From: an uncultured delta proteobacterium
GTDB lineage: Bacteria; Desulfobacterota; WTBG01; CAIYCZ01; CAIRTM01
NCBI GenBank assembly: GCA_963804955.1
Contig: CAWDSQ010000016.1
Span: 125,285 to 189,284, forward strand
Reading direction: 5' to 3'
DNA length: 64,000 bases
How positions within the stretch are numbered: position 1 is the stretch's first letter; each line of letters begins with the position of its first letter. Positions 1-44,649 of this stretch are shown here, piece by piece. Below the pieces are notes generated by a model, which made no database searches, was not told where the DNA came from, and saw only the letters and a program-made list of their open reading frames with translations. A program made the position numbers and the translations under genes.

Positions 1-492
1 CGTGCCCGTGTCGGGCTCTGCCGCAGCCCTTGAAAAACAGCCGGCCCAGATCATGGCCGCGGCATTGTCTCAATGACCACATGCACCTGTTTGCCCGCTT
101 CAAAGCCCGGACCCAGGGCAATTGTAAGCGGCGCCATGTCCATGCGCATGCCCGTATCGCGCTTGGCAAGGGTGGCATCAACGACGACATCTGCCTTATA
201 GTCTTTCAGAACAGCAGCCGCAGGATCGACCAGCACCGGGATTTGACCCGCTGCCAGGCTCTCTTGAATTTCATGATATTGAGTGCGCATTTCGTGCGCG
301 GTACATCTCTTCAACCAGCAGTTTCCCCGTCGATAACCGCCTGGGCAAAAGACACGGTCCGCCGCACGACCAGCGGCTGGCAACTTCAAGCAGCAGCACC
401 TTAAACCCGCTGCGGAACAGACGGTGCGCAACACCGGTGGCCAGATCGCCACCGCCGCGAATAATGACGCACATGTCTTTAATCTCTTTCAT
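1..492 (-). CDS. yqeB: YqeB/EF2563-family selenium-dependent molybdenum hydroxylase maturation protein (frameshifted, runs off window)
   Basis: N-term VIIRGGGDLATGVAHRLFRSGF (ORF 271-492), then IPVLVDP..DVVVDATLAKR..IALGPGFEAG..VVIET (ORF 51-452), the YqeB signature. Confidence 0.85.
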
Positions 493-726
493 AAAAAGCC
501 TTTATGATGAGGCTTTTAGAGCACCTTTGCCGAAGTGCATTCCAAGACCTCCGGCAAAAGCGCTTAAAGGGTATTTGAGGAAACGAACCGAACGAAGTCG
601 TTCGGGTTCGATGAACAGCCTGAGCGGTCAAACTGTTCGGTCATGGCAGGACGCTTCTATCTGCCATCACCGGAAAGCTGGACAGTGTCTGAACCAACAA
701 GGCGGATTAACATCCCGAAACTTAAT

Positions 727-760
727 AAAAGCAGGCGCCCCTTTCGGGGCGCCTGCTTTT
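727..760. terminator. Bidirectional intrinsic terminator after the Mo-hydroxylase operon
   Basis: AAAAGCAGGCGCCCC-TTTC-GGGGCGCCTGCTTTT perfect hairpin just past the stop at 772. Confidence 0.9.
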
Positions 761-771
761 GTACAGCACTT

Positions 772-3159
772 TTACTTAATACCCTGTTCCTTGATAGCCT
801 TCAGCACCTTCTCAGCGGTGATGGGGGCTTCGTTAAACTGGATGCCGATGGCGTCGTAAATTGCATTTGCAACCGAGCCGATCGGACCCATGAGTGCCGA
901 TTCACCGCAGCTCTTTGCTCCCATCGGGCCGATGGGATCAGGAGCGCTTTCAACCAGAATGATTGTAGCATCGGGCATATCAGACGGTCCGAGCATCTTG
1001 TAGTCGGTAAAGTCAGTGTTCAGCACGCGGCCCTGCTTGTCATAGGCGTACTCTTCCGTGAGCACAAACCCGAGACCCTGGTGCGCGCCGCCTTCCAGCT
1101 GACCTTCGACTGAAGGCGGATGGATGGCTTTGCCGATATCGTGAGCATTCACCAGCTTAAGCACTTTCACCTCGCCGGTCTCGGTGTCCACTTCGACTTC
1201 GGAGATGCAGGCGCCGAAGGGCGGTGAGCAGTGCTTGGCAAAGTAGCTTGAATAGCCCTGGATCTGGCCCGGGATACCAATGGTCTTGCCGGTGGCTGCA
1301 TCAATGTAGTTATAGACGCCTTCCTTGGCGATCTTCACGGCGCTGATCGACTTCTGGGGATTGCCCTTAACGCTTATGATCTTGTCTTTCATTTCAAGAT
1401 CTTTCACATTGGCTTCCAGAAGCTGGGCAGCCCGCTCAAGCAGCTGCTTCTTGACGCTTTCGCAGGCTTCGATGGTGGCAGGTCCTGCGCAGTATACGGT
1501 ACGGCTTGCATGAGCGCCGATGTCAAAACCGCACATATCGGAGTCGCCGGACCGCAGATGGATATCCTCCATCGGGAAACCCAGCGTTTCAGCCGCCATC
1601 TGCGTTATGGCGGTATGGCCGCCGGTGCCGAGATCGGATATCTGCTGAATCAGCTCGACCGTGCAGTCTTCATTGAGCTTGGCCGTGCAGACGGAATGCT
1701 CAAGCAGCATGGGAAAAGCGCCTGAGGTGTGCTGCATGACGGCAACGCCCAGACCGCGGCGCTTGATGCCGGTCTGCTTGGCATACTTTTTCTTCTTTTC
1801 ATACCAGCCGATCTCTTTGGCTGCAAGATCGATGCAGTCATTGAGACCGTCGGAGGCGTAGGTCACGCCCTTCAGCCATGTCTCATCGCCGATACGACTT
1901 GTGCCACTTCTTGCGCCACTCGAGCTCGTCCAGACCGAGCTCCTTGCACATCCGCGTGATCATCTGCTCGCCGGCAGAAGGTCAGCTGCGGGTTGCCGTA
2001 GCCGCGGTAGGCGCCGGTGGGCACTTCATTGGTGAAGTAGCCTTCGGTCTGGCAGCCCATGGCCTGCCATTTGTACATGCCGTGAAGAAAAGCGGCGCGC
2101 AGAATGGCGGCCCGGAGCCATGGGTATAGTAGCCGCCTTTGCGGGCCATGATACATGGCATCGAGTGCGACGGGGGTGCCGTCTTTTTTGAAGCCGCATC
2201 TTGAACCAGCAATGGCCGGGATAGCGGGTTTCAGAGGCTACCCAGTCTTCCTCGCGCAGGAACTCCATGCGCACGGGGTGGCCGGGCACTGCCATGGCCA
2301 TGGCGCAGGCATGGGGCTCGCCGATCATGCCCAGGCGAACGCCGAAACCGCCGCCCACAATGGTCTGCACCAGGCGAACGCGGGTCAGGGGCAGCTCGAA
2401 CAGCTCGGCAATCAGCACCTGCACGGGCTTGGGCATCTGGGTTGATGTCCAGATGTTCAGGCGGCCGCGCTCATCATAATGGGCCACATAGGAGTGGTTT
2501 TCCATCTGGCACTGCTTCTGCTTGGGAACATAAAAGCGTGTCTTCGATTACATAATCGCACTTGTCAAACAGCTGGACCGCGCGTTTTGCCGTTCTTGTC
2601 GTTCCAGCCATAGCGCTTGCCCGGGAAGAACGATTCGGGCAGATCAAAAGCCATGTTGCCGGGCTTGAGCGGGCGTGAACAGATAGCCGTTCTTCTTGTC
2701 GCCTTCGGCCTTTGATGCCTCGCAGGTCATAAAAACGGGCAGGGGCTCATAGGTGACCTTGATCTTGTCTGCTGCGCGCTCGGCTGCTTCTTCGGTTCTT
2801 GCGATAACGCCGCAAATGGCATCGCCCTGATGCTTGACGACCTTGTTGAAGATGTTCAGGTCGGCGATTTCGCCGAATACTTCGCCGAAAATTTCAGGCA
2901 CGAGCAGCTTCATAACCGTCGTGTTGTAGGGTTTTTTCGTGACATCATCGGGGCCGATGATTTTTACGACGCCGGGCACCTTCAATGCTTCGGTAAAATC
3001 AAGCTTTTTGACTTTAGCGTGAGCATATTCCCAGCAGCGCACGACTTTGCCGTAGTACATGCCGGGCATGCGCATGTCGCCGGCATAGATGGACTGACCG
3101 GTTACCTTCTCACGGGAGTCAACTTTGGGGATTCGTTTTCCAATAACGGATTCTGCCAT
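772..3159 (-). CDS. Xanthine dehydrogenase-family molybdopterin-binding large subunit (several frameshifts)
   Basis: IGKRIPKVDSREKVTG, VGGGFG, GAYRGYGNPQ, DTETGEVKVLK..HDIGKAIHP..GQLEGG, GAKSCGE across ORFs 2644-3159, 2026-2505, 1872-2156 and 772-1866. Confidence 0.9.
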
Positions 3160-3174
3160 GCTGTTCCTCCTTTC

Positions 3175-3726
3175 CTATCGCTTGCCGGCGGCTGTTTTTT
3201 TACTAGCCACCTGAACAGCTTTGACAATTTTTACATATCCGGTGCAGCGGCAGATATTGCCTTCCAGACCGCGCCGGATTTCCTCTTCCGTGGGCTTTGG
3301 GTTCTTCTCAAGAATGGAAACTGCCTTGAGAACCATGCCCGGCGTGCAGAAGCCGCATTGTATGGCGCTTTCATCGACAAAGGCCTTCTGAACGGGATGC
3401 AGCTCGCCATCTTTTGCAAGACCGGCAGCGGTGATGATATGCTTGCCGTCCATGGTGGCTGCCAGTGCTATACAGGCAAGAATGGGTTTCTTCTTCGCCT
3501 TTTCGATGGAGCAGTAGGTTGTGTGGGCGTCGACGGTCTTGCATTTCATGCCGCCTTCTTCCACCAGCAGCACGGTGCAGGCGCCGCATTCGCCGCGGCC
3601 GCAGCCGTATTTAACGTCAGTCAGGTTCAGCTGATCCCTGATGACCTGAAGAAGGGTATGATGAACGGGTACGTTCAGATTATACTCCTCCCCATTTATA
3701 TACAGGGTTATTGCACGTTTTTTCAT
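3175..3726 (-). CDS. (2Fe-2S)-binding small subunit of XDH-family enzyme
   Basis: GCGRGECGACTV and QCGFCTPG..GNICRCTGY motifs. Confidence 0.95.
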   Translation of the reverse strand: MKKRAITLYINGEEYNLNVPVHHTLLQVIRDQLNLTDVKYGCGRGECGACTVLLVEEGGMKCKTVDAHTTYCSIEKAKKKPILACIALAATMDGKHIITAAGLAKDGELHPVQKAFVDESAIQCGFCTPGMVLKAVSILEKNPKPTEEEIRRGLEGNICRCTGYVKIVKAVQVASKKTAAGKR

Positions 3727-3769
3727 GATTAAATCTCCTTAAAGATAATGTTGTGAAATAGTCCTGTAA

Positions 3770-4640
3770 TTACTTTCCAAGTGCTTCAACAATTATGCGC
3801 TTGACCATGACGCCCGCTACATCGCGCCGATACTCTGCCGTGGAGCGAACATCATCAATGGGCTTAATTTCCGTGGGGACTGTTTCAACAATCTTCTGGA
3901 GAACATCGTCGGTAATCTGGCTGCCTTTCAGGAGCGCCTCGACTTTTTTCAGCCGAATGGTGGTCGGCGCCACTGCGCCGATGGCAACGCGTGCTTCCTT
4001 GCAGGTCTTGCCTGACATGTCCAGACGCACGGCAACATTGACCTTGGAAAGGTCAAGGGTGGTGCGGGTCATGCGGGCAAACGCATTGCAGGAGCCGGTT
4101 GTCACCGGGGGCAGCTTTATTTCGACGGCAAGTTCATCGCTTTTGCAGGCCGTTTCTTTATACTTCACGATAAAAGTCATCGATGCTGACTTCCCGCTTG
4201 CCCTTGGGGCCGCGCAGGACCAATTTGCCGCCAATCGCAAGGATCGCGCAGCAGCAGTCCCCTGAGGGGGAAGCGCGCATGATATTACCAACAACGGTGC
4301 CCATATTGCGTGTCTGGGGCGTACCGTTAATGGCTGCTGATTTCCACAGAGCAGGATATCTCTTCTGCACGTCGGCATTGTCGGCAACCTGTTGCAGCGT
4401 TGCCATGGCGCCGATGCGCAGCCCGTTTTTGCTGTCGTACTCGACATAGTCAAGACCGGGAATTTCGGCAAGACTGATAACATTGGGGCTGCCAAATCCC
4501 TTGGTCAACGAGATCACTACGTCGGTGCCGCCAGCCATGACGGAAGCCTTGTTTTTCAGCTTGCCAAGCAAGTCAACGGCTTCCTTGATGCTCTGGGGCA
4601 TCAGCAGCTCGAATTCCGGCAGTATTCGACTACTGGCCAT
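3770..4640 (-). CDS. FAD-binding medium subunit of XDH-family enzyme (one frameshift)
   Basis: MAGGTD, IGAMATL, RNMGTVVGN, AIGAVAPT, PIDDVRSTAEYR; RBS AGGAGG. Confidence 0.9.
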
Positions 4641-4821
4641 AAGTTAAACCTCCTTATTCAATTAGTTTAAACGTGTACGTGGGTTTCTACCAAATATAAA
4701 GGCTTTCTGTTCCAGCCACCTCCTTTCGAAACTGATTTGTATAAAATAAAAAGAACTGAATGATTCTTGCGTCGTGCTGCTATCGCTTCCGCAACAGCGG
4801 CATACTCAGACTGCTGCCAAT

Positions 4822-4852
4822 AAAAAACCGGTCCCGTGACGTCAAGGACCGG
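4822..4852 (-). terminator. Riboswitch expression-platform terminator upstream of the XDH operon
   Basis: Minus strand CCGGTCC-TTGACGTCACG-GGACCGG-TTTTTT. Confidence 0.75.
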
Positions 4853-4874
4853 CTCGCTTACAATCGCGAACCGT

Positions 4875-4972
4875 ATCTCCTTTCCGCCACGGGAGGCATG
4901 ACCTTTCGGGCCATGCCCTGTCGTCCGTCTGTTCACAAGCTTGGGCTTTTAGAATGCGGCCGGCTTGGAGAT
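4875..4972 (-). ncRNA. Moco/Tuco riboswitch aptamer (P3-less form)
   Basis: Minus strand CUCCAAG..P2..AGGG-CAUGGCC-CGAAA-GGUCAUG-CCUCCCGUGGCGGAAAGGAG, matching the Moco motif 3' core; lies upstream of a molybdoenzyme. Confidence 0.85.
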
Positions 4973-5080
4973 CCCTGCTGTTCCGAATCTCTGCCGCGTA
5001 TGCCTGCTCTGCCGCTACGAGACTTTACACTCTACCCTTACGCACCCGGGAGCGTCAACGCGTCGCCGGTAAAAAATGCG

Positions 5081-6412
5081 GCAACATAAAAATGTCACCC
5101 CAGCGGGCTCAGTCACACGCGCTGCCATGGGCCAGCACCGCATAGGCCCAGGTCGAATTTCCCGGCTCGCTGCGCGGTTTGGAGCTATTTGCCGGTCACC
5201 GGCTCGCGCACCGGCGTGGGACCATGGCCGGCAATAACAGTCATTGCCATAATAGACCCGCCACGAGCCGTCCAGAAGCTGCCGCACCTCGACCGGCGCT
5301 TTTGCATATGATATGCGCTTGCGGCCGGGCGGCACATCGATTCGGATATCCCCGAGCACGACCTTATTATCATGCTGCACGGTTGCGGGATAATAAAAGC
5401 TGCAGACCCGCTCAAGATCAACGCCTTCGGGCAGCTTCCGCCATGCAGGCTCGGGCTGTTCGGGCTCGCAGGCATGGCTGCGGTTGAATGCCGCTATAAG
5501 GCCATGATCAAGCAGCTTATTGGCCTTGTCAGTTCTGCTATATCTCTGCCTTCAAACTGGCCGGCAAGAAATGTTTCAAACAGAAGCCGTAATGCTCATG
5601 ATCCGGCGCTTGCTTTCAAGATAATGCGCGATGCCCAGCGCCTGCAGCGCCCGCTCGACCTGGCTCGGGTCCCGCTCGCCGCGCAGCTCCTCTTCAAGAG
5701 TCCAGGAGCGGTCGCTGCGGCGCACGGCGCTGCGGCTGTGCTGGCAGAATGCCGGTGGCACGCCGCAGGTGCGCACAACCTCACGCATCAGCCAGAGATA
5801 CGCCTCTGCTTGTTTGTGCCGGGAAAAAGCGCGCCGCAAGACAGCTCAGCGTGGCCGTGTCGACCGCTGCCATAAAGCAGCTTTCGTGCTCGCCAAACCA
5901 TTTTTTCGTAATGCCGCCCCACAGCACCATCATGCCTTCACTGGCATAGCAGGCTGACCGCGGGTCGCCGCTGCCTGTCCTTCCGGCCTGGTTCGCTTGA
6001 TGCCCTCGGCGCGCAGAATTCTTCGAATTGTTTCACGGCTGAGGCTGATGCCGTGCTCGGCCTGCAGCCGCAGCGTTAGCTGCGTATCATTTAGAGCCGC
6101 GTACCGCGTGCGGGCAAGATGCAGAATGCGCGTGCGCACATGATCACTTAAGGCCCTGTGCGAGCGCCTGCCGATATTGCCGTGCAGCACGCCGCGCGCG
6201 CCGTTGCGGACAAATGCCTGCTTGAGCCGTTTTGCCTGCCGGTAGCTGACGCCTATTTTACCTGCGCGCCTCTCGCAGCGTAATATAGCCGTCAAGCACC
6301 ATCTGCAGAAAATGGATGCGCTGGAGCTGACCGGGGCTGAACGCGAGCAACTGCGTTTGCAGGCCGGCGCATCGGCGGCTATCTTCTTGTTGAGCTGTTC
6401 TGCATGGCTCAA
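5081..6412 (-). mobile_element. ISNCY-family transposase derivative, frameshifted and lacking DDE residues
   Basis: LQRIHFLQMVLDGYITLREA..GVSYRQAKRLK..HGNIGR..ISLSRETIRRIL; AAVDTAT; YAKAPVEVRQLLDGSWRVYY; IS-end-like GGTGACATTTTTATGTTGC at 5081-5099. Confidence 0.75.
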
Positions 6413-6487
6413 AAAAACCCCTTCTGCATCATATAGGAAAAAAACAGCGGGGTTTCGCAGTCGGCCATGGTCTGCTCATTGAATATT

Positions 6488-7148
6488 TCACGCGGGGTGC
6501 CCATGTCCACGTTCTTTGCCGTCGGCATATACAATGACTCTATCTGCCAGGCAGTAGGCCTCGAAAATATCATGGGTCACCAAAACAACCGGTATGCGGT
6601 AAAGTTGTGCCTGATGTCGCGCAGAAAGTCGCGCATCTCCGTGCGCAGATGCTGAGTCGAGGGCTGAGAAGGGCTCGTCAAGCAGCAGCAGATCGGGCTG
6701 CCGGATAAGTGCCCGGGCAAATGCCACACGCTGTTTCTGCCCACCTGAAATTTCGCAGGGCAATTTATACTCAAGTCCTTCAAGGTGAAAAAGATCCATG
6801 ATGTCCCGCAGACGCCGGTTGCGATCCTGCGGGCTGATGCCTGCGGCGCCGTACAGAATATTTTTTTCAACGGTCATATGGGGGAACAGGGCAAGATCCT
6901 GAAACACATAGCCGATGCGGCGCTTCTGAGGGGGCAGACATATATTCGCTGACGGTATCAAGCAGCACGGTGTCACCAAGCGTTATGAAGCCCTTGTCGG
7001 GCTTCATGTGGCCCGCAATCAGCTGCAGGGTCAGTGACTTGCCTGCTCCGGATGGCCCGAAAATGACGGCGAGCTCATCCCCGACCTCCCAGGAAACAGC
7101 AAGATGAAATCCTTTTACTTTTTTATCGACCGTGACTTTAAAACCCAT
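6488..7148 (-). CDS. modC: Molybdate ABC transporter ATPase (frameshifted)
   Basis: GPSGAGKS Walker [35 protein letters not shown]. Confidence 0.9.
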
Positions 7149-7193
7149 ATCGATATCCTTGCATTCCGGGCTACATGCTCTGTTGCGTGTTTT

Positions 7194-7902
7194 TTAAAAC
7201 GGCGACAGGCCGTTTCTGCCGCATTTGCGAAACCGCGCGGTCAGGCTGTTTGCGATCAGGAGCAGCCCGCCGGATACGACTGTAAAAACCGCGACCATGA
7301 CATGCGCCCGCGGCCAGTCGCCGCTTGCAGCGCTTGTGTAAATGGCAAGGGGCATGGTGTCGGTTCGGCCGGGAATATTGCCGGCCATCATGAGGGTTGC
7401 CCCGAATTCGCCCATAGCACGGCAAAAGAGAGCAGAAGCGCGCCGGCAATGATTCCCGGTTTTGCCAGGGGCAGTATCACTTTGAAAAAAGTTTCAAGCT
7501 CGGAGCGGCCCAGGGAATATGATGCATTTACTAAATTGACATCGACCGACTTCAATGGCGGCCCGTGATGTCTTGACCATCAGCGGCAGAGACACGACAA
7601 ACGAGGCCAGCACAGCGGCATACCAGGTAAACATGATGCTCAGGCCCTGTACTCTCGTATATCCAGCTGCCCAGAAAGCCGTTTCTGCCAAAAAAGATAA
7701 TCAGGTAGTACCCTGTCACGCTCGGCGGCAGCACCAGCGGCAGGGTGCAGAGCATGTCAAGCAGCTGCCTGCCGCGAAAGTCACATCGCGCAAGAACATA
7801 GGCAGCTGCCATACCAATAACGATCACAAAGCAGGTTGCGGTCAGTGCGACCTGCAGCGACAATCGGAGTGAAAAAAGTGTTGTGCCGTCAAGACCGCTC
7901 AT
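7194..7902 (-). CDS. modB: Molybdate ABC transporter permease (frameshifted)
   Basis: LSLQVA, TLPLVLPPSVTGY, GEFGATLMMAGNIPGRTDTMPLAIY. Confidence 0.9.
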
Positions 7903-8676
7903 GGTTTTGCAAAACCGTATTTTTCAAGAATGCTGCGTGCTGCGGTGTCACCGGCAACAAACTCGCACAAACGTTCTTGCCGCTTGTGGGCTTTTCGTGT
8001 TTTTTATAACCGCTGCCGGATACAGCACCGGGCTGTGAGCTGCTTGCGGGACACGCAAAAAAAATGCTCGCCCCGGTCGGCTGCGTGAGCGCATCGGTTT
8101 TGTACACAATGCCCGCATCGACTTCTCCGCGAACCACATAATCGAGCACCTGTCGCACATTTTCACCCATAATGAGTTTTTCTTTGAGCACATCGCTCAA
8201 CTTGAAAAAAGCAAGCACTTCCCCTGCATACCGTCCGGCGGGAACGGTCTGCGGATTGCCGATACCGATTCTGCGAACTTCGGGTTTTTTTAAATCGTCC
8301 ATGCCTGCAAGCTTCAGGCTCGACTGGGAGGGTTTCACAAGGACGATACTGTTGCCGGCAAACACAGCCCGGGTTTCGGGGATCGAGTAGATGTTTGCTT
8401 TCTATGTCATTCATGTCTTTGGGCGATGCCGAGGCAAACACATCAACCGGCGCGCCCGCTTCGATCTGCCGGGCAAGGTCGCCGGAACCGCCGAAATTGA
8501 AAAGCACTTTAACCGTCGGGTTTATTGCTTCAAAGCTCTTGCCAATCTCTTAAAAAGCGTTTTTCAGGCTGATGGCGGCGGACACGGTTATCTCGGCCTG
8601 TCCGGAAGCATTGAAACGGGTAGACAGAGAAAAAGCAAAGGGCTGCGGCGGCAAACAGGAAACGTTGACGATTCAT
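7889..8676 (-). CDS. modA: Molybdate ABC transporter substrate-binding protein (frameshifted)
   Basis: FNFGGSGDLARQIEAGAPVDVFASA, GNPQTVPAGRYA, ENVRQVLDYVVRGEVDAGIVYKTDA; RBS AAGGAGG before ATG 8676. Confidence 0.9.
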
Positions 8677-8703
8677 GGTCCTCCTTCATGAAAAACGGGC
8701 AAT

Positions 8704-8738
8704 AAAAAAAGCCGCTCCCGTGGCGACACGAGACCGGC
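8704..8738 (-). terminator. Riboswitch expression-platform terminator upstream of modA
   Basis: Minus strand GCCGGTCTCGTG-TCGC-CACGGGAGCGGC-TTTTTTT. Confidence 0.75.
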
Positions 8739-8757
8739 TCATTGGAGCAATCGACCA

Positions 8758-8855
8758 ATCTCCTTTCCGCCACGGGAGGCATGACGTCTTTCGGCATAAG
8801 CCCTATCGGTCGAACATCCATTGTTTTTTTACGGTAGGACTTTCGACTCGGAGAT
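8758..8855 (-). ncRNA. Moco/Tuco riboswitch aptamer (P3-less form) upstream of modABC
   Basis: Minus strand CUCCGAG-UCGAA..UUCGA..AGGG..GAAA..CCUCCCGUGGCGGAAAGGAG; 3' core identical to the 4875-4972 copy. Confidence 0.88.
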
Positions 8856-8875
8856 ATAGTTTGTAATTATTAGTA

Positions 8876-8904
8876 ATAATAATGATTTTGTCTATGTGCG
8901 TCAA
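8876..8904 (-). promoter_or_regulatory. sigma70-type promoter for the riboswitch-modABC transcript
   Basis: TTGACG-17bp-TATTAT about 20 nt upstream of the aptamer. Confidence 0.6.
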
Positions 8905-9070
8905 GGGTTGAATAGAAAAAACTAATTGCAGAATTATTTTGTCCCCATGGCCGGATGACCTTGTAGCTTCCCTCATGCGCCCTGCCCCCGCTGGGTTGTG
9001 GCTTTGATGCTGCGCGTACTCTATTGTTCCCATATTTTGTCCCTAGCAAGCTCCCTGCTGCAAGGATTCT

Positions 9071-9087
9071 TTCAATAGTCGTGCCAA
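9071..9087 (-). promoter_or_regulatory. Putative sigma54 (-24/-12) promoter
   Basis: TTGGCAC-GACTA-TTGAA, divergent from a sigma54 activator gene; the -12 element is TTGA rather than TTGC. Confidence 0.55.
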
Positions 9088-9159
9088 GATAAACGGTGGG
9101 TAATTGCAATGAAAAAACGGCCCTTTTTACGGGAAAAACTTGACACGGGGTAGGAATTG

Positions 9160-9194
9160 TGTCCAAATATGGACAGCGTGACCATTTGTGGTCA
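9160..9194. promoter_or_regulatory. Tandem palindromic enhancer (UAS) candidates for the adjacent activator
   Basis: TGTCCA-AATA-TGGACA (9160-9175) and TGACCA-TTTG-TGGTCA (9179-9194). Confidence 0.6.
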
Positions 9195-9296
9195 GAAGAC
9201 GGGCACATCGCCGACAAAATGATGTGGCAGAAACAGGGGCAGACAAAAGACCTGCGGCTGCTGGCCGTACAGGCCTGTCCTATGAAAGAAACCCGC

Positions 9297-10799
9297 ATGG
9301 ATGAGCTGCAAAACTATCAGACTCTTCTGCAAATCACCAACGCCACCATCAATGAGCGCACGCGGGAGGGTCTATTCCGGGAGATTGCGACCGTGCTCAG
9401 CCCTGTCTTGCTTTGACCGCATCGAGCATTCTGATCAACAACCCCGGTAAATCCCACTGGGAATATTTCACACCCGCTCTGGGTGCTACCATCCCGGACT
9501 TAAAAATAACACCATACCCCCGGAGCGGGCGGCGGTGCCCGTGCGCGTCATGACGGAAAAACGAACCATCATCACTGATCTTGACCGGGACAGCGGCCTT
9601 CCGGAAGCCGCGCTTTTGCGGCGGGCCCGGATTCGCTCTTTTGTCTGCACGCCGCTGCTCATGCGCGACCAGGTGCTCGGATCGGTACAGTTTTTTACCG
9701 CGACGCCCGCCCCTATGCGCCGAGGAGATCGAGCTGTGCGAAAAAGCATGTCGGCAGATCGCCCTTGCCATCGACAATATGCTCGCCTACGAGTCCCTCG
9801 AACAGATGCGGGACCAGCTCTCTAGGAAACAGCCTTCCTCCGACGGGAAATGGCCAGCATCGACTGCGCCGAGATCGGTATGCAAGCCCTGCATGGAGCG
9901 TATCATCGAAATCATTAAGGCCGTTGCCGACGCCGACACGACCGTGCTCGTCACCGGCGAAACCGGCACAGGCAAAGACCTCGTCGCACGCAAGATCCAT
10001 GAATGGAGCTCCCGCCGGGCAATTCTTCATAAGGTCAATTGCGCCGCCCTGGTGCCCACGCTGATAGAAAGTGAACTGTTCGGCCATGAAAAAGGCGCCT
10101 TTACCGGCGCTGCGGCACGCAAAATTGGACGGTTTGAGCTTGCCCAGAACAGCACGCTGTTTCTTGATGAAATCGGCGAGCTGCCGCTGCAACGCAGGCA
10201 AAGCTGCTGCAGGTTCTGCAGGAGCACGAGTTCGAGCGCGTGGGCGGCACGGAAACCATTCGTACCGATGCTCGCATCATCGCGGCAACCAATCACAACC
10301 TCAGCGCGATGGTGGTGGAGGCAAGGTTTCGTGAGGACCTGTTCTACCGGCTCAATATCTTCCCCGTGCCGTGCCGCCCCTGCGGGAACGGCGCGAGGAT
10401 ATAGCAGTTCTGGGCAGGTACTTCGCGCCGCTGTAGCACAAAGCTTCGACGGCCGCAGCCCCGCTTCAACAAAAGCGCGTTGACGTGCTGTTGCGTTACG
10501 ACTGGCCCGGCAATGTGCGGGAGCTTCAGAACTTCATGGAAAGGGTGATCATACTGAAATCGAACCAAACCATGACCGGCGACGATATAGCACCATGCTC
10601 AACAGTTCAGCGACGCAGCGCGACGGCGCGTGACCCTTGAAGACGCCGAACGACGCCACATCGAAACATGCTCTGAAAAATGCAACGGTGTCATTGCAGG
10701 CCCGCGGGGCGCTGCCGAGCAGTTGAACATGAAACGAGCACGCTGCAGCACCGCATGAAAAAGCTGGGGGTTCAGGCAGACACGTACAGAAAGGCTTGA
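9297..10799 (+). CDS. sigma54-dependent transcriptional activator, GAF-AAA+-HTH (FhlA-like; frameshifted)
   Basis: [52 protein letters not shown]-terminal GAF-like region. Confidence 0.9.
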
Positions 10800-10923: not shown

Positions 10924-12252
10924 CTACTGTGGCATCGGAGTGCCTGATGGTGGGTCGGGGGGTTTCTTGTGCGTGCATGAGTCTGCATCGCCATCAAGGT
11001 TGAATAGTTTTCTCGCCGCCTCAACATAGAGGCTGCCGTCATGATTTTCCGACTGCTTTTTCAGCACAACCACGGGAGCATGCAGGAGCTTGTTAACGAT
11101 TGCCGCGGTCAGGCCCTCTATGGCATCGATGTGTTCAGGGGTGAGGCCCTTTGTTTTGGCAAGCATTTTTTCCATTTCAGCTGTTTTTATACGCTCGCCT
11201 TTTTCCCGAATCGCAACAATCGTCGGCACAACCTCAAGGGATTTCATCCAGGTTGCCGCCTCGGCAACCTCGGCCTCGACAACCGACTCGGCCTGTCGGG
11301 CCTGCAGCGTGCGCTCTTTCATGTTTTCCCGGACAATGGTGTTCAGGTCATCAACATCAAAAAGGAAAACATTGTCAATCTCATTGACGCCGGGGTCGAT
11401 GTTGCGGGGCACTGAAATATCGATCATGAACATGGGCCTGTTTTTACGCTCTTTTTCCAGCGCGGCAATGTCCCCGGGCTTAATGAGATAATGAGGCGCT
11501 CCGGTTGAGCAGATAACAATATCGGCGCGGTGGAGCTGGGAGAGAAAGCCTTCAAACGGTACGGCCGTTCCCCTGAATTCAGCGGCCAGGGCTTCGGCCT
11601 TCGCAAAATCCCGGGTGGTGATCAGCACCTCGCTGGCGCCGCTTCCCACCAGGTGCTTGAGGGCAAGCTCTGCCATTTCCCCGGCGCCGACGATAAAAAC
11701 TATCTTTTTTGCAAGCGAGCCGAAAATTTTTTCCGCAAGCTCGACGGCAACGGAACTTACGGAAACGCGCAGCTGGGAGATGGCCGTTTCGGTCCGTACT
11801 TTTTTCGCCACCGAAATCGCTTTTTTGTAAATGCTGTTCAGCACGACGGCCGTGGACTTTTGGGCAAGGGCCGCCTCGAAGGCGTCCTTGACCTGCCCCA
11901 GGATCTGAGCCTCGCCGACAACAAGGGAGTCGAGGCTTGAGGCGACCCGGAAGATGTGCTTGATGGCATCGGTGGCACAGTAGCGGTACAGGTGGGGAAG
12001 CAGCTGGCTTCTGTCGATGCCGAATTTCTCGACAAGAAAACCGACGATTTTTTCAAAGCCTTCTTCGGTGTCTTTTACTGCAGCGGCAATTTCAACGCGG
12101 TTGCAGGTCGAAAGGATGAGGGACTCATCAACCGTGGGCAGGTTCAAAAGGCTGCAGAGGGCCTCGGGCAGCTCTTCCGCTTTGAACGCCAGCTTTTCGC
12201 GAAGCGCAACATCTGCGGTCTTATGATTGAGCCCTACCAGAATTAAGTTCAT
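10924..12252 (-). CDS. hemA: Glutamyl-tRNA reductase
   Basis: GLNHKTA, LSTCNRVE, SLDSLVVGEAQILGQVK, GAGEMA, DISVPRNI. Confidence 0.97.
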   Translation of the reverse strand: MNLILVGLNHKTADVALREKLAFKAEELPEALCSLLNLPTVDESLILSTCNRVEIAAAVKDTEEGFEKIVGFLVEKFGIDRSQLLPHLYRYCATDAIKHIFRVASSLDSLVVGEAQILGQVKDAFEAALAQKSTAVVLNSIYKKAISVAKKVRTETAISQLRVSVSSVAVELAEKIFGSLAKKIVFIVGAGEMAELALKHLVGSGASEVLITTRDFAKAEALAAEFRGTAVPFEGFLSQLHRADIVICSTGAPHYLIKPGDIAALEKERKNRPMFMIDISVPRNIDPGVNEIDNVFLFDVDDLNTIVRENMKERTLQARQAESVVEAEVAEAATWMKSLEVVPTIVAIREKGERIKTAEMEKMLAKTKGLTPEHIDAIEGLTAAIVNKLLHAPVVVLKKQSENHDGSLYVEAARKLFNLDGDADSCTHKKPPDPPSGTPMPQ

Positions 12253-12288
12253 ACAGGAAGTTTCATGCCGTGTAAAACACGTTCGGGT

Positions 12289-13107
12289 TTAAAAAAATGC
12301 ATGCCATTCATTTTGCGAAAAATACGTCGTTGCCGCAAATGCGGCCATGACAAGCACAAAGCCAAGGACCGACAGGAAAGCCCCCTTTTTCGCCCGCCAG
12401 CCCAAACTGTATCTGCCGTGAAAAATCACGAGATAGAAAACCCATGAAAGCATGGCAAACAGCATTTTTGTATCGGTAATCGAGATGCTGCCGAATGCTG
12501 TTTTTGCCCAGAAAAAACCCGCCATAATGCCTATGGTCAAAAGAAAAAAACCGATGGACAGTACTTTTATGCTGATATCATCAAGCATATTCAGGGGCGG
12601 CAGCTTGTAGAAGAAGTTGGTAAGCCGCTTTTGTTTCAGAAGCCTGTCCTGAATAAGGTACATGATGCCCACAGAAAAAGAGATGCCGAAAAAAACAAAG
12701 CCCGTGACCGAAAAAATGGTATGGATTAAAAACCAGTTGCTGTGCAGCAGGGGATCAAAGGGGGTTATACTCTTGGGCAGCAGCAGGGCGCCGCACAGGC
12801 TGGCAACAGCAACAGGAAGAATAAAAGCTCCCAGGGCATATATTTTATACCAGCGCCCTAAAACCAGAGAGATAATCACCAGGGCCCAGCTGAAAAATGC
12901 TATTGATTCATATACCTTGCTGAACGGGAAATAGCCGCTCTCGATCATGCGGGAGCACAGGGACAGCGTATGCAGTATCAGGCCGATACAGCACAGAGCA
13001 ACTGAGCTGAAGGCCAGTTTTTCTGTTTTATTGTATACATAGAACCAGCAGGAAATGGTCCCGAAAAAATAAAGCAGGAGAGCTGCGTACATGAATGAAA
13101 TGTTCAT
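12289..13107 (-). CDS. ccsA: Cytochrome c assembly family membrane protein (CcsA/HemX-like)
   Basis: About 8 TM helices, WFLIHT, YLIQDRLLK, LPPLNMLD, GWRAKK; directly upstream of hemA. Confidence 0.8.
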   Translation of the reverse strand: MNISFMYAALLLYFFGTISCWFYVYNKTEKLAFSSVALCCIGLILHTLSLCSRMIESGYFPFSKVYESIAFFSWALVIISLVLGRWYKIYALGAFILPVAVASLCGALLLPKSITPFDPLLHSNWFLIHTIFSVTGFVFFGISFSVGIMYLIQDRLLKQKRLTNFFYKLPPLNMLDDISIKVLSIGFFLLTIGIMAGFFWAKTAFGSISITDTKMLFAMLSWVFYLVIFHGRYSLGWRAKKGAFLSVLGFVLVMAAFAATTYFSQNEWHAFF

Positions 13108-13272
13108 AGTTCGTGCCCGTGCGAGTTTTTTATGTGGCTGAGGGGAACAATGAATATATCGAATTGTTCATACTATCATTTTAATTGACAGGCAACAATT
13201 AGAAATATAAATTGCTGTTCTTTGTTGTCTTTTTCAAACACGCTCACTATGGCTGCTCCAGGGGACAACTCC

Positions 13273-14175
13273 ATGAAAATAAGAATCGGCACCAGAGGCA
13301 GCGACCTGGCACTGTGGCAGGCTGACTATGTTTCAGAGCTGATCGGCAGGCAGCAGACCGAAATAATTATCATCAAGACGCAGGGCGACATAATTCAGAA
13401 TGTCTCCTTTGAAAAAATGGAGGGCAAGGGATTTTTCACCAAGGAAATTGAAAATGCCCTGCTTGAAAAAAGCATTGATGTTGCCGTTCACTCCCTCAAA
13501 GACCTCCCGACCGACAGCCTTCCCGAGCTGTGCATTGCGGCAATCCCCGTGCGGGAAGAGCCGTCGGATGTTTTGCTTATCCGGCCCGAAGCGCTTGATA
13601 CAGCCCGTATCCTGCATCTGCGTGAGCATGCCATTGTGGGCACCAGCTCTGTACGCAGGCTCGCTCAGCTCAAGCATGCTGATCCGACACTGGAGGTACA
13701 GCCCCTGCGGGGCAATGTAAATACCCGCCTGCGCAAGCTGCGCGAAGGCCGCTATGATGCAATTATGCTGGCCCAGGCCGGCATTGCGCGCCTGAAGCTT
13801 GATATATCATCGTTGCACAGGTATATACTCCCCTTTGACATCTTTCTGCCGGCTCCCGCCCAGGGAGCGCTCGGGCTCCAGGTACGAACAGATGATGAGC
13901 AGACCCGCAGCGTGATACGGAAGCTAAACCACGAGGACACAGAGCTGGCGGTAACAGCGGAGCGGGAGTTTTTAAAGCATTTTGGCGGCGGCTGCCATAT
14001 CCCCCTGGGGGCTCTTGCGACCATTGAGGCGGGCAGCATTCATCTGACCGGAGTTATTGCCGCCACAGACGGATCAAAAACCATGCGGCAGTCCGTTTCC
14101 GGCACTGACCCCGGACAGATCGGGGCTGAGCTTGCCCGCATACTAAAAGAACAGGGAGCTGCGGAGCTTGTATGA
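13273..14175 (+). CDS. hemC: Hydroxymethylbilane synthase
   Basis: IGTRGSDLALWQA, GKGFFTKEIE, AVHSLKD, GTSSVRR, RGNVNTRL, PAPAQGALG. Confidence 0.97.
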   Translation: MKIRIGTRGSDLALWQADYVSELIGRQQTEIIIIKTQGDIIQNVSFEKMEGKGFFTKEIENALLEKSIDVAVHSLKDLPTDSLPELCIAAIPVREEPSDVLLIRPEALDTARILHLREHAIVGTSSVRRLAQLKHADPTLEVQPLRGNVNTRLRKLREGRYDAIMLAQAGIARLKLDISSLHRYILPFDIFLPAPAQGALGLQVRTDDEQTRSVIRKLNHEDTELAVTAEREFLKHFGGGCHIPLGALATIEAGSIHLTGVIAATDGSKTMRQSVSGTDPGQIGAELARILKEQGAAELV

Positions 14176-15674
14176 AAAAAGGTTTTGTGTATCTGGCCGG
14201 CGCCGGCCCGGGCGACCCTGAGCTGATAACGGTAAAGGCGCTCAATGCCCTTGCTCAGGCCGATTGTATTATCTATGATTTTCTCGCCAACCCCGCCCTT
14301 GTTGAGGGATATGCCTGCGAAAAGATCTATGTCGGGAAAAAGGGTGGCGATCACACCCTGCCGCAGGAGGGGATCAATGAGCTTATCATTCAGAAAGCCC
14401 GGGAAGGCAAGACCGTGGTGCGCCTCAAGGGCGGCGACCCTTTTATTTTCGGCCGCGGCGGCGAAGAGGCTGAAGACCTTGCTGCGTCTGGCATCCCCTT
14501 TGCAATAATTCCGGGCATATCTTCATTTTACGGAGCGCCTGCCTATGCAGGCATACCGGTGACGCATCGCGATTTTGCCCATGCCATGGAAATTATTACC
14601 GGGCACCGGCGTGAGGATGCGGCCGAAGGAGAGGATGTAAATTTTCCGGAATATGACAGCGACCGGACTTTTGTTTTTCTCATGGGTGTTAAAAACCTGC
14701 CCCATATTACCGACTCTCTGATCAATAAAAAACATTTCCCGCAGGAAACGCCCGTTGCTCTCATCTCCTGGGGCACCAGGCCCGAGCAGCGTGTTGTGAC
14801 CGGCACACTGCAGGACATTGTCGCCAAAAGGTGAAAAGGAAAAGATCAAGCCTCCTTCCATTATTATTGTCGGCGGCGTTGTCACGCTGCGGGAAAAGCT
14901 TCGCTGGTTTGACAATCAGCCTCTGTTCGGAAAAAAAATTGTCGTTACCCGGACGCGCAAGCAGTCTTCAAAACTTTCGCAGCAGTTGAGCAGGCTTGGT
15001 GCTGCTGTTATCGAATTTCCCACAATAGAGATACGGCCGCAGCAGGACCTCAGCCGGGCTTGAGACAGCTATCAGGAACCTGCGGGAGTTTCGCGTGGCT
15101 GTTTTTCACCTCGCAGAATGCGGTGGGCATCTTTTTTGACAAGCTCTTCAGCCTGGGCCTTGATGTGCGCGCTCTGGGCTCTGTAAAGATTGCCGCCATA
15201 GGACCTGCAACGGGAGATGAACTCATCAAATACGGATTGAAGCCTGATCTTGTTCCCAAAGAATTTGTTGCCGAGAGCCTGCTTGAGGAAGCCCGCAGCC
15301 TGAAGCTTGCCGGCAGCAAAGTGCTGCTGCCCTGCGCCCGGGAAGCCCGCTCCGTGCTTGCCGAGGGCCTTCAGAAGCTTGGCGCCACGGTTGAGCGCAT
15401 TCATATGTATGAGACAGTCAAGCCGGAGAACATAGGGCCTGAAACCATTGCCCACGTGCAGGAGGCTGACCTCATTACCTTTACCAGCTCATCAACGGCA
15501 CGGAATTTCTTCTCCCTCGTGCCTTCGGTGAAGGCAGAGCTTGCCTCCATCGGCCCGGTCACCTCGCAAACCATCCGAGAGCTGGGCCACAGCCTGACCA
15601 TTGAGGCTTCTGAATACACGATTGACGGGCTGGTGCAGGCAATCATGGAACATTACGCCAATAGGCGGGGATAA
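14172..15674 (+). CDS. cobA/hemD: Fused uroporphyrinogen-III C-methyltransferase / uroporphyrinogen-III synthase (frameshifted)
   Basis: GAGPGDPELIT, RLKGGDPFIFGRGGEE; then PLFGKKIVVTR, FTSQNAV, FTSSST, SIGPVT. Confidence 0.92.
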
Positions 15675-15676
15675 GT

Positions 15677-15840
15677 CGTCACCCCGGTGAAAACCGGGGG
15701 CCAGATGTAGGGGCAGATCAGCGTGTCTGTCCGGCACAAGGGCGCACACACAAATGCGCCCCTACATGAAAATCCCGGATACCGGCTTGTCGCCGGTATG
15801 ACGATAAAACGACATTGTTAGACTTTTTACGGGACCATCA
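15677..15840. repeat. Nested REP/MITE-like palindromic elements
   Basis: Outer CGTCACCCCGGTGAAAACCGGGG..GGATACCGGC..GCCGGTATGACG; inner TGTAGGGGC..GCCCCTACA doublet (15706-15766); GACTTTTTACGGGACCATCA end at 15821-15840. Confidence 0.7.
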
Positions 15841-15875
15841 TACCGTTGCCTTAATAACCGCTCCGGAGAAATTTC

Positions 15876-16848
15876 ATGGACTTAATTAAAAGACCGCGGC
15901 GCCTGCGCAGCGCACCCTGCATACGCAACCTCTCTGCTGAAACCATTGTCAGTTCGGAGAAGTTGATCATGCCCTACTTTGTCTGCGAGGGGTCAGGGAT
16001 CAGGGTGCCCATTGAATCCATGCCGGGCATCGACCGGGTATCGGTTGACAATCTGCTGGCTGATCTTGAAAAAGATTCCGCCCTTGGCATAGCAGCAATC
16101 ATTCTCTTTGGCATTCCCGACACAAAAGATGAAAAAGGCTCCGGGGCCTATGCCGATAGACGGCATTGTGCAAAAAGCCGTCCGCGCAATTAAAAAAAAG
16201 TTCCCCGACCTGTATGTCATAACCGATGTCTGCCTGTGCGAATTTACCAGCCACGGCCACTGCGGCATGGTTGACAAAGGAAAAATTTTAAATGACCCTA
16301 GCCTTGAGCTGCTGGCAAAGACCGCTGTGTCGCATGCCGCAGCCGGGGCTGATATGGTGGCGCCGTCAGACATGATGGATGGCCGCGTGGCAGCCATCAG
16401 GCAGGGCCTTGACAGCAATGGCTTTTCAGATATTCCCATACTGGCCTATGCGGCAAAATATGCGTCCGCCTTTTACGGCCCCTTTCGCGATGCCGCGGGC
16501 AGCGCGCCCCAGTTCGGCGACCGGCGCAGCTATCAGATGGATTTTCGCAATGCCGCTGAGGCGGAGCGCGAAGTGCTGCTTGATATCGAAGAGGGCGCGG
16601 ATATCGTCATGGTCAAGCCGGCCCTTTCTTATCTTGATATCATTCATCGGATTAAAAACATCGTGAAAGTTCCCGTCTGCGCCTATAATGTGAGCGGCGA
16701 ATATGCCATGGTCAAAGCAGCCGGCCGCTTCGGGTTCGGCGATGAGCAGCGCCTGACCACCGAGATTCTGACCTCAATCTTCCGCGCCGGCGCCGACATG
16801 ATTATTTCGTATCACACCCGCGATGTTTTGAAGAACAAGTGGTTTTAA
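15876..16848 (+). CDS. hemB: Porphobilinogen synthase (one frameshift)
   Basis: [55 protein letters not shown]. Confidence 0.96.
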
Positions 16849-16865
16849 CTGCCGGAGCGCATTGC

Positions 16866-18156
16866 ATGAACACAGAAAAATCAGCGGCCCTTTTCAGCGA
16901 GGCCTTACAGTATCTGCCCGGCGGCGTCGACTCTCCGGTGCGGGCTTTCCGCTCCGTGGGGGGAACCCCGCTTTTTATGAAAACAGGGCGCGGGCTCGCG
17001 TATTATTGATGAGGATGACAATGAGTATATCGATTACTGCATGTCCTGGGGCCCCCTGATTCTCGGGCATGCCGACGCTGATGTACTCCGCGCCATTCAG
17101 GAAACCGCCGCGAGCGGCACAAGCTTTGGAACGCCTCACCGCTTTGAGGTGGAAATGGCAAAGCTGGTGACAGGCGCGTACCCATCAATTGAAAAGGTGC
17201 GGTTTGTCAATTCCGGCACGGAAGCTGTCATGAGCGCTGTGCGCCTTGCGCGGGGCTTTACGGGCCGGGATAAAATCATTAAATGCGACGGCTGCTATCA
17301 CGGCCATGCCGATTTTATGCTTGTTGCCTCGGGCTCGGGCCTTGCAACCTTCGGAACCCCGGACTCAGCCGGCGTTACCCCCGGCAATGCGCAGGACACC
17401 CTGGTCGTGCCTTACAATGATCCTGAGCAGCTGGAAGCCTGCCTGAAAAAAAATGAGGGCTCTGTTGCCGCCGTCATTATGGAGCCTGTTCCCTGCAACT
17501 ATGCCCTGCTGCTGCCGGGTGATGATTATTTGAAGACCGTGCGCGGCCTCTGCGACCGCTACGGCGTGCTGCTCATCTTTGATGAAGTGATCAACGGCTT
17601 CCGCCTGGCATGGGGCGGCGCGCAGGAGTATTACGGCGTCAGGGCCGATCTGACAACGCTTGGCAAGATTATCGGCGGCGGGCTGCCGGTGGGCGCCTAT
17701 GGCGGCCGCAGGGACATTATGAGCAAAATTGCGCCCGATGGGCCGGTGTATCAGGCGGGCACCCTGTCGGGCAACCCCCTTGCCATGGCTGCGGGTATTG
17801 CAACCCTGAAAAAACTTGCGGGAACAAAAGCCTATGCAGCATTGCGGGAAAAGGCGGAGCTCCTGCGCCACAAGCTGCAGCCTGTGCTGCAGCAGTATGC
17901 AGGAAGGGTTCTTGTCCAGCAGCTTGAATCAATATTCTGTTTCTATTTCACCGATGCCGAAAAAATCAAAACCCTTGATGCAGTAAAAAAATGCGACATG
18001 CAGCTTTTTGCGCGCTATCACCGGGAGATGCTGAACCGGGGAATCTATCTTGCCCCCTCAGGCTATGAAGTCGGCTTTCTTTCCCTTGCTCATACGGAGG
18101 CCGATCTTGACCGCACGGTTGCAGCGGTCGGGGCATCGCTGAAGGCAATTCTATAA
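16866..18156 (+). CDS. hemL: Glutamate-1-semialdehyde 2,1-aminomutase (one frameshift near the N-terminus)
   Basis: [61 protein letters not shown]. Confidence 0.96.
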
Positions 18157-18191
18157 ACACTACTCGACTCTCTTGAAGAAATGCTGCTGAA

Positions 18192-18344
18192 ATGAAAATG
18201 CCGAACATACCCCGCCTGATATTCTGGGAGCTCACCAAGCGCTGCAATCTGGCTTGCGCGCACTGCCGGGCGCAGTACGTTGCAGGCGATTATCTGGCGG
18301 AGGAGCCCTCCTGCGTCTATCAGCCGAAAAGGACTGCCCTGTGA
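18192..18344 (+). pseudogene. ahbD: Internally deleted AhbD-like radical SAM gene (50-aa in-frame remnant)
   Basis: MKMPNIPRLIFWELTKRCNLACAHCRA joined directly to QYVAGDYLAEEPSCVYQP; stop overlaps the GTG of the next gene; absent from the ORF track. Confidence 0.8.
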
Positions 18345-19372: not shown

Positions 19373-19758
19373 TTGATATAGGAAAAATATACTGCGGGAG
19401 AAGCTCAACCGGTGTGGGAATCGGCAATATGCACCCCGACCAGTTCTGGCAGGACTACGCGTTCGGAAATATCCGCGAGCGCCGCTGTGGCGATATCTGG
19501 CTTGATGAAAGCGAACAGCTCATGCACGGCCTGAAGCACAAGGCCGACTATATCAAGGGCCGGTGCCGCCACTGCCAGTACCGCGCCATGTGCACGGGCT
19601 CCATGCGGGTGCGGGGATACCGCACCTATGGAGATTTCTGGGCGCCTGAACCCCAGTGCTATATAACAGATGAGAGAATAGGTCTTGGTGCGGCAAAAAA
19701 GCTGGACCTTATTGAAAACAACGAGGCATTACCCATGCCAAAGGAGCTTATGGCCTGA
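19369..19758 (+). pseudogene. ahbC: Internally deleted AhbC-like radical SAM gene (129 aa, SPASM tail only)
   Basis: MIDIGKIYCG N-terminus fused in frame to GNMHPDQFWQDY..GNIRER..IW..KGRCRHC..C.GSMRVR..GDFWAPEPQCY; no CxxxCxxC motif. Confidence 0.8.
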
Positions 19759-44500: not shown

Positions 44501-44516
44501 TACACTCCTGATTTCT

Positions 44517-44612: not shown

Positions 44613-44649
44613 TGTGGTGATCGAAGGCGGGTTAGCACTCGCTTCATAT

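Follow-up and report, generated by a model that had tools for sequence, protein, structure and literature searches.

The 64-kb window of contig CAWDSQ010000016.1, from an uncultured delta proteobacterium, carries two riboswitches of the molybdenum cofactor/tungsten cofactor (Moco/Tuco) class, RS1 and RS2, which both lack the stem P3 and are both followed by an intrinsic terminator. RS1 precedes the oxyanion uptake genes modABC and RS2 precedes genes for a hydroxylase of the xanthine dehydrogenase (XDH) family and YqeB, and this arrangement is very probably that of OFF switches with these genes as their regulon. The best explanation as a whole, in which the two RNAs turn off a molybdenum (Mo) module and the tungsten (W) form of the cofactor is the likeliest effector, stands in our judgement at an even chance of being correct. 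Positions are those of the window, i.e. the whole stretch of 64,000 nucleotides, and the module genes and both RNAs are on its minus strand.

Two aptamers without P3

The original prediction, made from the sequence alone, named two Moco-class aptamers, and a search with the Rfam model RF01055 returns both of them above the gathering score of 36 bits, each matching model positions 1–135 (Table 1). They share the core GUCAUGCCUCCCGUGGCGGAAAGGAGAU, as had been claimed, and contain the conserved RF01055 elements CUCCGAG ... AGGG ... GCCUCCC ... GGAAAGGAG with P1, P2, P4 and P5 present and a GAAA tetraloop on P4, the junction of RS2 at 4971 reading CUCC-A-AG and not CUCC-G-AG. Both alignments show the model's P3 columns as deleted, P2 leading over a short junction to AGGG, and the P3 stem, predicted to be missing, is found in neither. 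P2 contains several non-standard pairs. A pattern describing the P3-less architecture has two matches in the window and none in 100 shuffled sequences, and a sensitive scan of 4400..9600 returns RS1 and RS2 only, with no third RF01055 copy. As to the genomic context by which members of RF01055 are judged, RS1 is located in the leader of modABC and RS2 in the leader of the XDH-family genes and yqeB. RS1 and RS2 are members of the Moco/Tuco riboswitch class, without P3.

Terminators and antiterminators

In both units the aptamer is separated from the first gene by the terminator, and the claim that the 3' arm of this terminator is complementary to the aptamer segment CCUCCCGUGGCG is borne out by the hairpins with their U-tracts and by the folds. 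In the unconstrained minimum free energy (MFE) folds of the two leaders this segment pairs with CGCCACGGGAG in RS1 and with CGUCACGGGA in RS2, and in RS1 the 3' strand of P1 additionally pairs with the 5' arm of the terminator. The MFE energies are −69.6 and −76.6 kcal/mol for the RS1 and RS2 leaders (z = −5.2 and −4.2), and 0 of 200 shuffled sequences are as stable. The duplex formed by the terminator loop and 3' arm CGCCACGGGAG with aptamer CUCCCGUGGCG in RS1 amounts to −25.9 kcal/mol, and that of CGUCACGGGA with aptamer UCCCGUGGCG in RS2 to −19.8 kcal/mol. This alternative helix uses the 3' strand of P4, P5 and the start of the 3' strand of P1, and since it takes up these segments the folded aptamer is excluded; an aptamer stabilised by its ligand should free the terminator, which gives an OFF switch.

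The pairing was followed in other genomes. A scan of GTDB genomes with the P3-less pattern gave 65 loci with 66 matches, the source genome not being among them, and a loosened pattern captured 72 RNAs, 30 of which have a terminator at most 160 nt away. For these 30 the duplex energy was calculated between the last 24 nt of the aptamer and the terminator loop plus 3' arm. The mean is −14.82 kcal/mol for an RNA and its own terminator versus −11.87 kcal/mol with the terminators of other RNAs (836 pairs), and −11.07 kcal/mol with shuffled terminators. A mean as low as that of the own terminators was reached in 0 of 2000 permutations, a count that should not be read as a probability because related sequences are not independent. 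Across orthologues the terminator loop and 3' arm co-vary with the variable P5 loop of the aptamer, an example being RS2 of locus L016 (described below) with aptamer CUGUUUUGGG and terminator UUUCCCAGGCAG. Each of the 11 RNAs in the window and in the related loci L009, L016 and L039 is followed by a hairpin with a U-tract. These data support the OFF logic of the original prediction.

The region should thus comprise two separate minus-strand transcription units, each with a promoter-like site, a P3-less aptamer and an intrinsic terminator. In the absence of ligand the 3' segment of the aptamer (3' strand of P4, P5 and 3' strand of P1, CCUCCCGUGGCGG...) would pair with the terminator loop and 3' arm and form an antiterminator, permitting read-through, and with ligand bound the aptamer would retain this segment, the terminator would form and transcription would stop. 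RS1 would in this way control modABC together with a co-oriented transposase-like gene, and RS2 the three-subunit XDH-family hydroxylase and YqeB. The promoter-like sites are matches to the σ70 consensus, and by this consensus the transcript of RS1 should start just upstream of the Rfam match. A terminator-like hairpin, also a consensus match, is located at 5099..5080 just upstream of the RS2 promoter-like site, between the two units. The direction of control in vivo we infer from the terminator/antiterminator anatomy and its covariation, both of which are present in the sequences themselves.

Genes of the two units

The order of the RS1 unit is modA, modB, modC and the transposase-like gene, and that of the RS2 unit is the FAD, 2Fe-2S and Mo subunits followed by YqeB (Table 1). 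The predicted content of modA, modB and modC, XDH-family subunits and YqeB was found; frameshifts in these genes and the intervening transposase-like gene had not been noted before.

Table 1. Predicted features of the RS1 and RS2 units in the 64-kb window.
Feature	Position	Strand	Evidence
Sigma-70-like promoter for RS1, TTGACG, 17-nt spacer, TATTAT	8876..8904	-	10/12 consensus match only
RS1, P3-less Moco/Tuco-class aptamer	8744..8865	-	RF01055 54.8 bits, E 2.3e-10
RS1 intrinsic terminator	8704..8738	-	Hairpin 8738..8711 + U7 at 8710..8704
modA, molybdate/tungstate-binding protein, at least 3 frames	7889..8666	-	TIGR01256 80.3 bits on one fragment, cutoff 62.5
modB, permease, 4 open reading frame fragments	7194..7902	-	NCBIfam/Pfam
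modC, ATPase, at least 2 fragments	6412..7148	-	NCBIfam/Pfam
ISNCY-like transposase gene, fragmented	5155..6400	-	Syntenic with intact 410–429-aa genes in L009, L016, L039
Sigma-70-like promoter for RS2, TTGACG, 18-nt spacer, TAGAGT	5029..5058	-	9/12 consensus match only
RS2, P3-less Moco/Tuco-class aptamer	4861..4982	-	RF01055 44.0 bits, E 3.3e-07
RS2 intrinsic terminator	4822..4852	-	Hairpin 4852..4828 + U6 at 4827..4822
XDH-family FAD subunit, one frameshift	3770..4640	-	FAD_binding_5 + CO_deh_flav_C
XDH-family 2Fe-2S subunit, intact, 183 aa	3175..3726	-	Fer2, Fer2_2
XDH-family Mo-pterin subunit, at least 4 frame breaks	772..3159	-	Ald_Xan_dh_C, MoCoBD_1, MoCoBD_2
YqeB, frameshifted, cut by window edge	1..492	-	TIGR03309 fragments 88 and 39.8 bits, cutoff 220

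The ModB and ModC fragments of the window score below their equivalog cutoffs because the genes are split. Among intact orthologues ModA and ModB of L039 and ModA of L009 are above the cutoffs, and ModC of L039 reaches 228.0 bits against a cutoff of 285.05. No NCBIfam equivalog cutoff for an XDH-family enzyme is reached by the subunits of the window or of L039. The closest solved relative of the L039 Mo subunit is the alpha subunit of 4-hydroxybenzoyl-CoA reductase (E 1e-86), and further solved relatives are 6-hydroxypseudooxynicotine dehydrogenase, quinoline 2-oxidoreductase and CO dehydrogenases. YqeB of L039 scores 351 bits with TIGR03309 (cutoff 220), a family of maturation factors that Haft and Self (2008) describe as a proposed marker of selenium-dependent molybdenum hydroxylases, such a system being expected to have YqeB next to the hydroxylase and selD in the genome.

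The module in related genomes

The same module is present in three Thermodesulfobacteriota metagenome-assembled genomes (MAGs). The nearest of the 65 loci to the window is L009 (JAFGCP01, a Deltaproteobacteria MAG) with 80–85% nucleotide identity and a FAD subunit that is 87–92% identical in amino acids, and the other two are L016 (CAYLYF01) and L039 (JANQGV01), both Thermodesulfobacteriota MAGs. The identities between window and L039 are 74% for the FAD, 63% for the FeS and 80% for the Mo subunit and 53% for YqeB. Each of the three loci has three RF01055 matches. In these relatives a tandem pair of RNAs is located before modABC, whereas the window has a single RNA before modA, and no second RNA was detected upstream of the window modA even at E values up to 1. 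In L016 and L039 modABC is preceded by a MoCF_biosynth gene and a gene for an XdhC-family maturation factor (403.7 bits, cutoff 350). The third RNA of the relatives is followed by the xdh genes, a 90-aa open reading frame (ORF), YqeB and a MadB-like ATPase, and the XDH-family/YqeB operon is thus kept behind an RF01055 RNA. P3 is missing from the alignments of all six RNAs in L009 and L039, and the three RNAs of L016 are full-model matches of 118–123 nt. On the evidence of gene order modABC-xdh is a conserved putative "Mo-hydroxylase module" of this Thermodesulfobacteriota clade.

In all four genomes the ISNCY-like gene separates modC from the xdh riboswitch. Intact copies are present in L009 (5569-6858), L039 (5556-6788) and L016 (1079-2317, minus strand), where the products of 410–429 aa show 37–46% pairwise identity and score 171–228 bits with a cutoff of 250, and in L009 and L039 the gene starts 3–13 nt past modC. 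A recent insertion of an insertion sequence that split one operon was considered and can be ruled out, as the intact gene is found at the same place in all three relatives. A syntenic transposase-like gene in a riboswitch-controlled operon suggests either that the gene was domesticated or that the module is mobile as a whole.

Outside the clade, the cultured strain Desulfofundulus thermobenzoicus DSM 14055 (L041) shows a parallel arrangement. At 6985-7609 it has a divergent pair of P3-less RNAs that are nearly identical and have one terminator each; the one on the minus strand faces modA, modA and a permease, and the one on the plus strand faces a sigma-54 activator, with a MOP-type molybdopterin aldehyde oxidoreductase (NF045668, 1623 bits, cutoff 1100) coming after the activator.

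Frame breaks in the module

Positions 1..8700 contain at least 13 frame breaks, and every module gene is hit except the 2Fe-2S gene (modA 2, modB 1–3, modC 1–2, the transposase-like gene at least 3, the FAD subunit 1, the Mo subunit at least 4 and yqeB at least 1). The other 55 kb contain at least 6 clear breaks, by which hemB (1 break) and the topoisomerase VI B gene (1) are split in two pieces and uvrC (2) and acrB (2) in three, and the first 8.7 kb are about ten times as dense in breaks as the remaining window. Selenocysteine codons were considered for the stops in the Mo subunit (TGA, TAA, TGA and TGA at 2646, 2550, 2028 and 1962) and are ruled out, since the similarity changes frame between the stops, which indicates paired frameshifts.

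The breaks could be due to assembly error or to real decay. If they are real, modABC, the transposase-like gene, the xdh genes and yqeB would be pseudogenes here and the riboswitches would control nothing useful, which we regard as a genuine possibility with somewhat less than an even chance; it concerns the state of the window copy only and is compatible with either form of the cofactor as ligand. The tenfold denser breaks (at least 13 in 1..8700, at least 6 elsewhere) point towards decay, as do the intact orthologues in L009 and L039 and the scores of the window aptamers, 54.8 and 44.0 bits versus 73.4 and 66.9 bits for the L009 orthologues. However, splits also affect housekeeping genes in other parts of the window, which indicates that the assembly is error-prone, and the indels relative to L009 are mostly 1–2-nt insertions outside homopolymers with no large deletions, a pattern that resembles read error more than decay. 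Gene decay in bacteria leans towards deletions. Moreover, the amino acid identity of the FAD subunit to that of L009 (87–91%) is high for a nucleotide identity of 85%, indicating purifying selection until recently, and neither RNA has lost its terminator or its antiterminator pairing.

P3-less RNAs in other genomes

The first same-strand gene downstream was determined for each of the 66 P3-less matches. It encodes a TupA-type binding protein in 15 cases and a WtpA-type binding protein in 2, and W-specific transporters are hence found behind 17 of 66 RNAs. ModA-type operons follow 6 (L041 minus strand, L042, L043, L045 and L056, and L057, which begins at the permease), which together with the three loci of the clade makes about 9 of 66. 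MoeA, mostly with MoaA, follows 15 RNAs, formate-dehydrogenase-like or other enzymes of the bis-molybdopterin guanine dinucleotide type 7, an ABC ATPase with an NMT1-like protein 2, and the activator/MOP unit of L041 (plus strand), a NiFe hydrogenase and a TonB receptor one each; 7 are unknown or other, and in 6 the flank is too short. The W association of P3-less RNAs is visible in these numbers, and ModA-type transporters are too frequent among them to pass as rare exceptions.

One genome of Ammonifex thiophilus has a WtpA operon (L008) and a ModA operon (L045) that are both preceded by P3-less RNAs, and these RNAs have an identical P5 loop (GGUGC). Within a Bacillota subgroup the aptamer cores are near identical before WtpA (L008), TupA (L022) and ModA (L041 minus strand, L042, L043, L045), and also before the Mo aldehyde oxidoreductase unit of L041 (plus strand), and no separate aptamer subclass for Mo-type versus W-type genes is found in this subgroup. 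The one class-specific feature among the compared aptamers is a change of the junction G of CUCC-G-AG. Outside the clade this base is conserved as G in 63 of 63 P3-less RNAs. The four XDH-linked RNAs have A, A, U and G at this position, and three of them deviate (window RS2, L016 RS3 and L039 RS3); the mod-proximal RNA of L039 (RS2) also has A. The change could reflect a relaxed constraint or an altered ligand contact.

In the Pelotomaculum-type MAGs L004, L013, L015, L035, L052 and L059 a P3-less RNA is located 22–25 nt before formate-dehydrogenase-like genes. These are split alike in five of the loci (ORFs of about 354 and 526 aa), L035 being cut by the locus end, and the regularity of the split suggests an in-frame selenocysteine codon.

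Nature of the ligand

The ligand would be a metal-bound pyranopterin cofactor. Its W form appears likeliest by the rule that absence of P3 marks specificity for the tungsten cofactor (the P3 rule) and by the company that this RNA type keeps, and the probability that the tungsten cofactor is the effector may be placed only just short of even. The metal of the ligand and the existence of a W counterpart of the enzyme are what we infer from these associations. With W-cofactor plentiful the whole Mo module would be shut, the uptake as a feedback and the enzyme as an alternative-metal isoenzyme. This hypothesis, put forward in the original prediction, is coherent, and Regulski et al. (2008) had already voiced the same logic as a speculation for other genes. 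For RS2 the W form is favoured, as an OFF switch would make poor sense for the cofactor that the enzyme itself uses and good sense for an alternative cofactor, on the model of the B12 riboswitches. For RS1 a feedback on an importer that carries both metals suffices, ModA being able to bind tungstate also, and repression of Mo import by W is not needed to explain modABC because P3-less RNAs precede ModA-type transporters at 5–6 other loci.

The same anatomy could also serve end-product feedback on the Mo module, with Moco as the effector or with an aptamer that does not discriminate between Mo and W, and the absence of P3 would then not be a reliable mark of W specificity. Every controlled gene is of Mo type, ModA-type operons behind about 9 of 66 matches are too many to be exceptions, and the near-identical Bacillota cores before both W-type and Mo-type genes suggest that one ligand serves both. 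Against this, it makes little sense to repress an apo-enzyme while its own cofactor is plentiful, and the OFF design of the xdh unit is clear; P3-less RNAs are strongly associated with W, given the W-specific transporters behind 17 of 66 and the data of Regulski et al. (2008; PMC2408646), in which 58 of 176 Moco RNAs are without P3 and Tuco genes occur in 17 of the 19 organisms with P3-less RNAs; and the P3-containing RNA of E. coli does not respond to tungstate. Feedback by Moco or by both metals is therefore possible, if distinctly on the improbable side.

Several observations weigh against the W-cofactor as the effector, or against intact switches in the window. The controlled genes are all Mo-type by annotation (ModA by TIGR01256, the XdhC factor and the XDH-family enzyme), for which plain Moco feedback is the simpler explanation of everything but the enzyme, and the solved relatives of that enzyme all contain Mo with molybdopterin cytosine dinucleotide. 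No tup, wtp or AFOR genes are found in the 64-kb window or in the 14-kb flanks of the relatives, which says little on whole genomes. The P3 rule is a correlation, and a 2024 review labels the RNA as "of unknown structure". To these are added the deviating junction base in three of the four XDH-linked RNAs, the window aptamer scores about 20 bits lower than in L009, and the many frame breaks of the module.

Extended to other genomes, the W reading would imply that P3-less RNAs enforce a W-over-Mo hierarchy at the RNA level, in which W-cofactor terminates transcription of a Mo-hydroxylase regulon in its entirety, from oxyanion uptake and the MoCF/XdhC maturation genes to the XDH-family enzyme and YqeB. 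At least two phyla would be concerned, represented by the Thermodesulfobacteriota clade and by Desulfofundulus, where the switch would act on the sigma-54 activator ahead of the MOP-type oxidoreductase. This proposal is tentative and, at present, rather more open to doubt than to acceptance. In a bolder variant the XDH-linked aptamers, alone in varying the otherwise invariant junction G, would sense a different pterin species. Whether P3-less Moco RNAs sense W has been a question since 2008, as binding assays are precluded by the instability of the ligands. P3-less OFF switches placed on Mo-type genes only constitute a sharp natural test of the P3 rule: repression by tungstate only would confirm the rule and a W/Mo hierarchy at the RNA level, and repression by molybdate would break the rule. 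The parallel case in D. thermobenzoicus DSM 14055, a cultured strain, is suited to this question. Annotation of this riboswitch class should include XDH-family/YqeB operons among its targets.

Other features of the window

Three nhaA-I RNAs (RF03057, gathering score 37), a motif described as a lithium/sodium-responsive riboswitch class, are located on the minus strand at 49958..50014, 50841..50899 and 59819..59867, with 44.6, 38.5 and 41.5 bits. A P-type cation ATPase of 936 aa (49564..46757) lies downstream of the first, and the other two are upstream of small ORFs without Pfam match. Genes for the A and B subunits of topoisomerase VI are present at 43293..46296 (minus strand) in a bacterial context, and a heme cluster at 10927..20423 contains siroheme-decarboxylase-like genes (NirDL/AhbAB-type).

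Comparison with known systems

The RNA family, the P3-less subclass, the terminator design, tandem copies and the idea of repression are already known; the link to an XDH-family/YqeB operon and the conserved modABC-xdh module appear to be new. A Moco RNA with XDH-family genes was not described in the literature searched, which included the supplementary text of the RegPrecise survey, with subscription journals and bioRxiv supplements outside its range. For this motif that survey (PMC3766115) names mod, tup, moa, mob and moe genes and no others. The main text of Regulski et al. (2008; PMC2408646) does not contain the word "xanthine", Table 1 and Fig. S4 of that paper lying outside the search and possibly listing such genes.

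The P3-less RNAs of Regulski et al. are the closest known cases. They belong to the same Rfam family, lack P3, have terminators on some copies, and include one mod-type target and some putative Mo-enzyme targets. The mod-type case is an exception in P. carbinolicus, where a P3-less RNA precedes a molybdate transporter, which may reflect tungstate carried by that class of transporter. In S. wolfei P3-less RNAs precede putative Mo sulfite oxidases and were speculated to repress them as Tuco rises, i.e. to act as an isoenzyme switch, and a triple tandem is also described for this organism. Tandem copies with their own terminators occur in that study (PMC2408646), as in L009, L016 and L039. The cases described there differ in that the enzyme is a putative sulfite oxidase, whereas here it is a three-subunit XDH-family hydroxylase with YqeB, and in that the modABC-xdh pairing is kept across a clade.

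The Tuco riboswitches of E. limosum (PMC11725836) are likewise P3-less RF01055 RNAs, two of five with terminators. The genes behind the terminator-type RNAs rise upon W limitation, indicating that the cofactor acts as the OFF signal. Their targets are WOR1, tupABC, iron transporters and focA, whereas the targets in the window, known from sequence, would be Mo-type uptake and a Mo-family enzyme. The Moco riboswitch of the E. coli moaABCDE operon (PMC2408646) shares the family, the conserved core and repression when the cofactor is made. It differs by having P3, by acting on a ribosome-binding site within P1 and not on a terminator, by controlling cofactor synthesis and not uptake or an enzyme, and by the lack of a tungstate response.

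If the W reading is right, the adenosylcobalamin (AdoCbl) riboswitches are similar in that a cofactor-sensing OFF switch shuts an enzyme not using that cofactor. Examples of B12-independent isozymes under AdoCbl riboswitches are metE and nrdDG. The RNA family is unrelated and the ligand is another one, and the analogy is one of logic only. Isozymes of B12-dependent enzymes are among the riboswitch-controlled genes of the RegPrecise survey (PMC3766115). A W-over-Mo hierarchy, if true, would be the pterin-cofactor counterpart of the B12 riboswitches that repress B12-independent isozymes.

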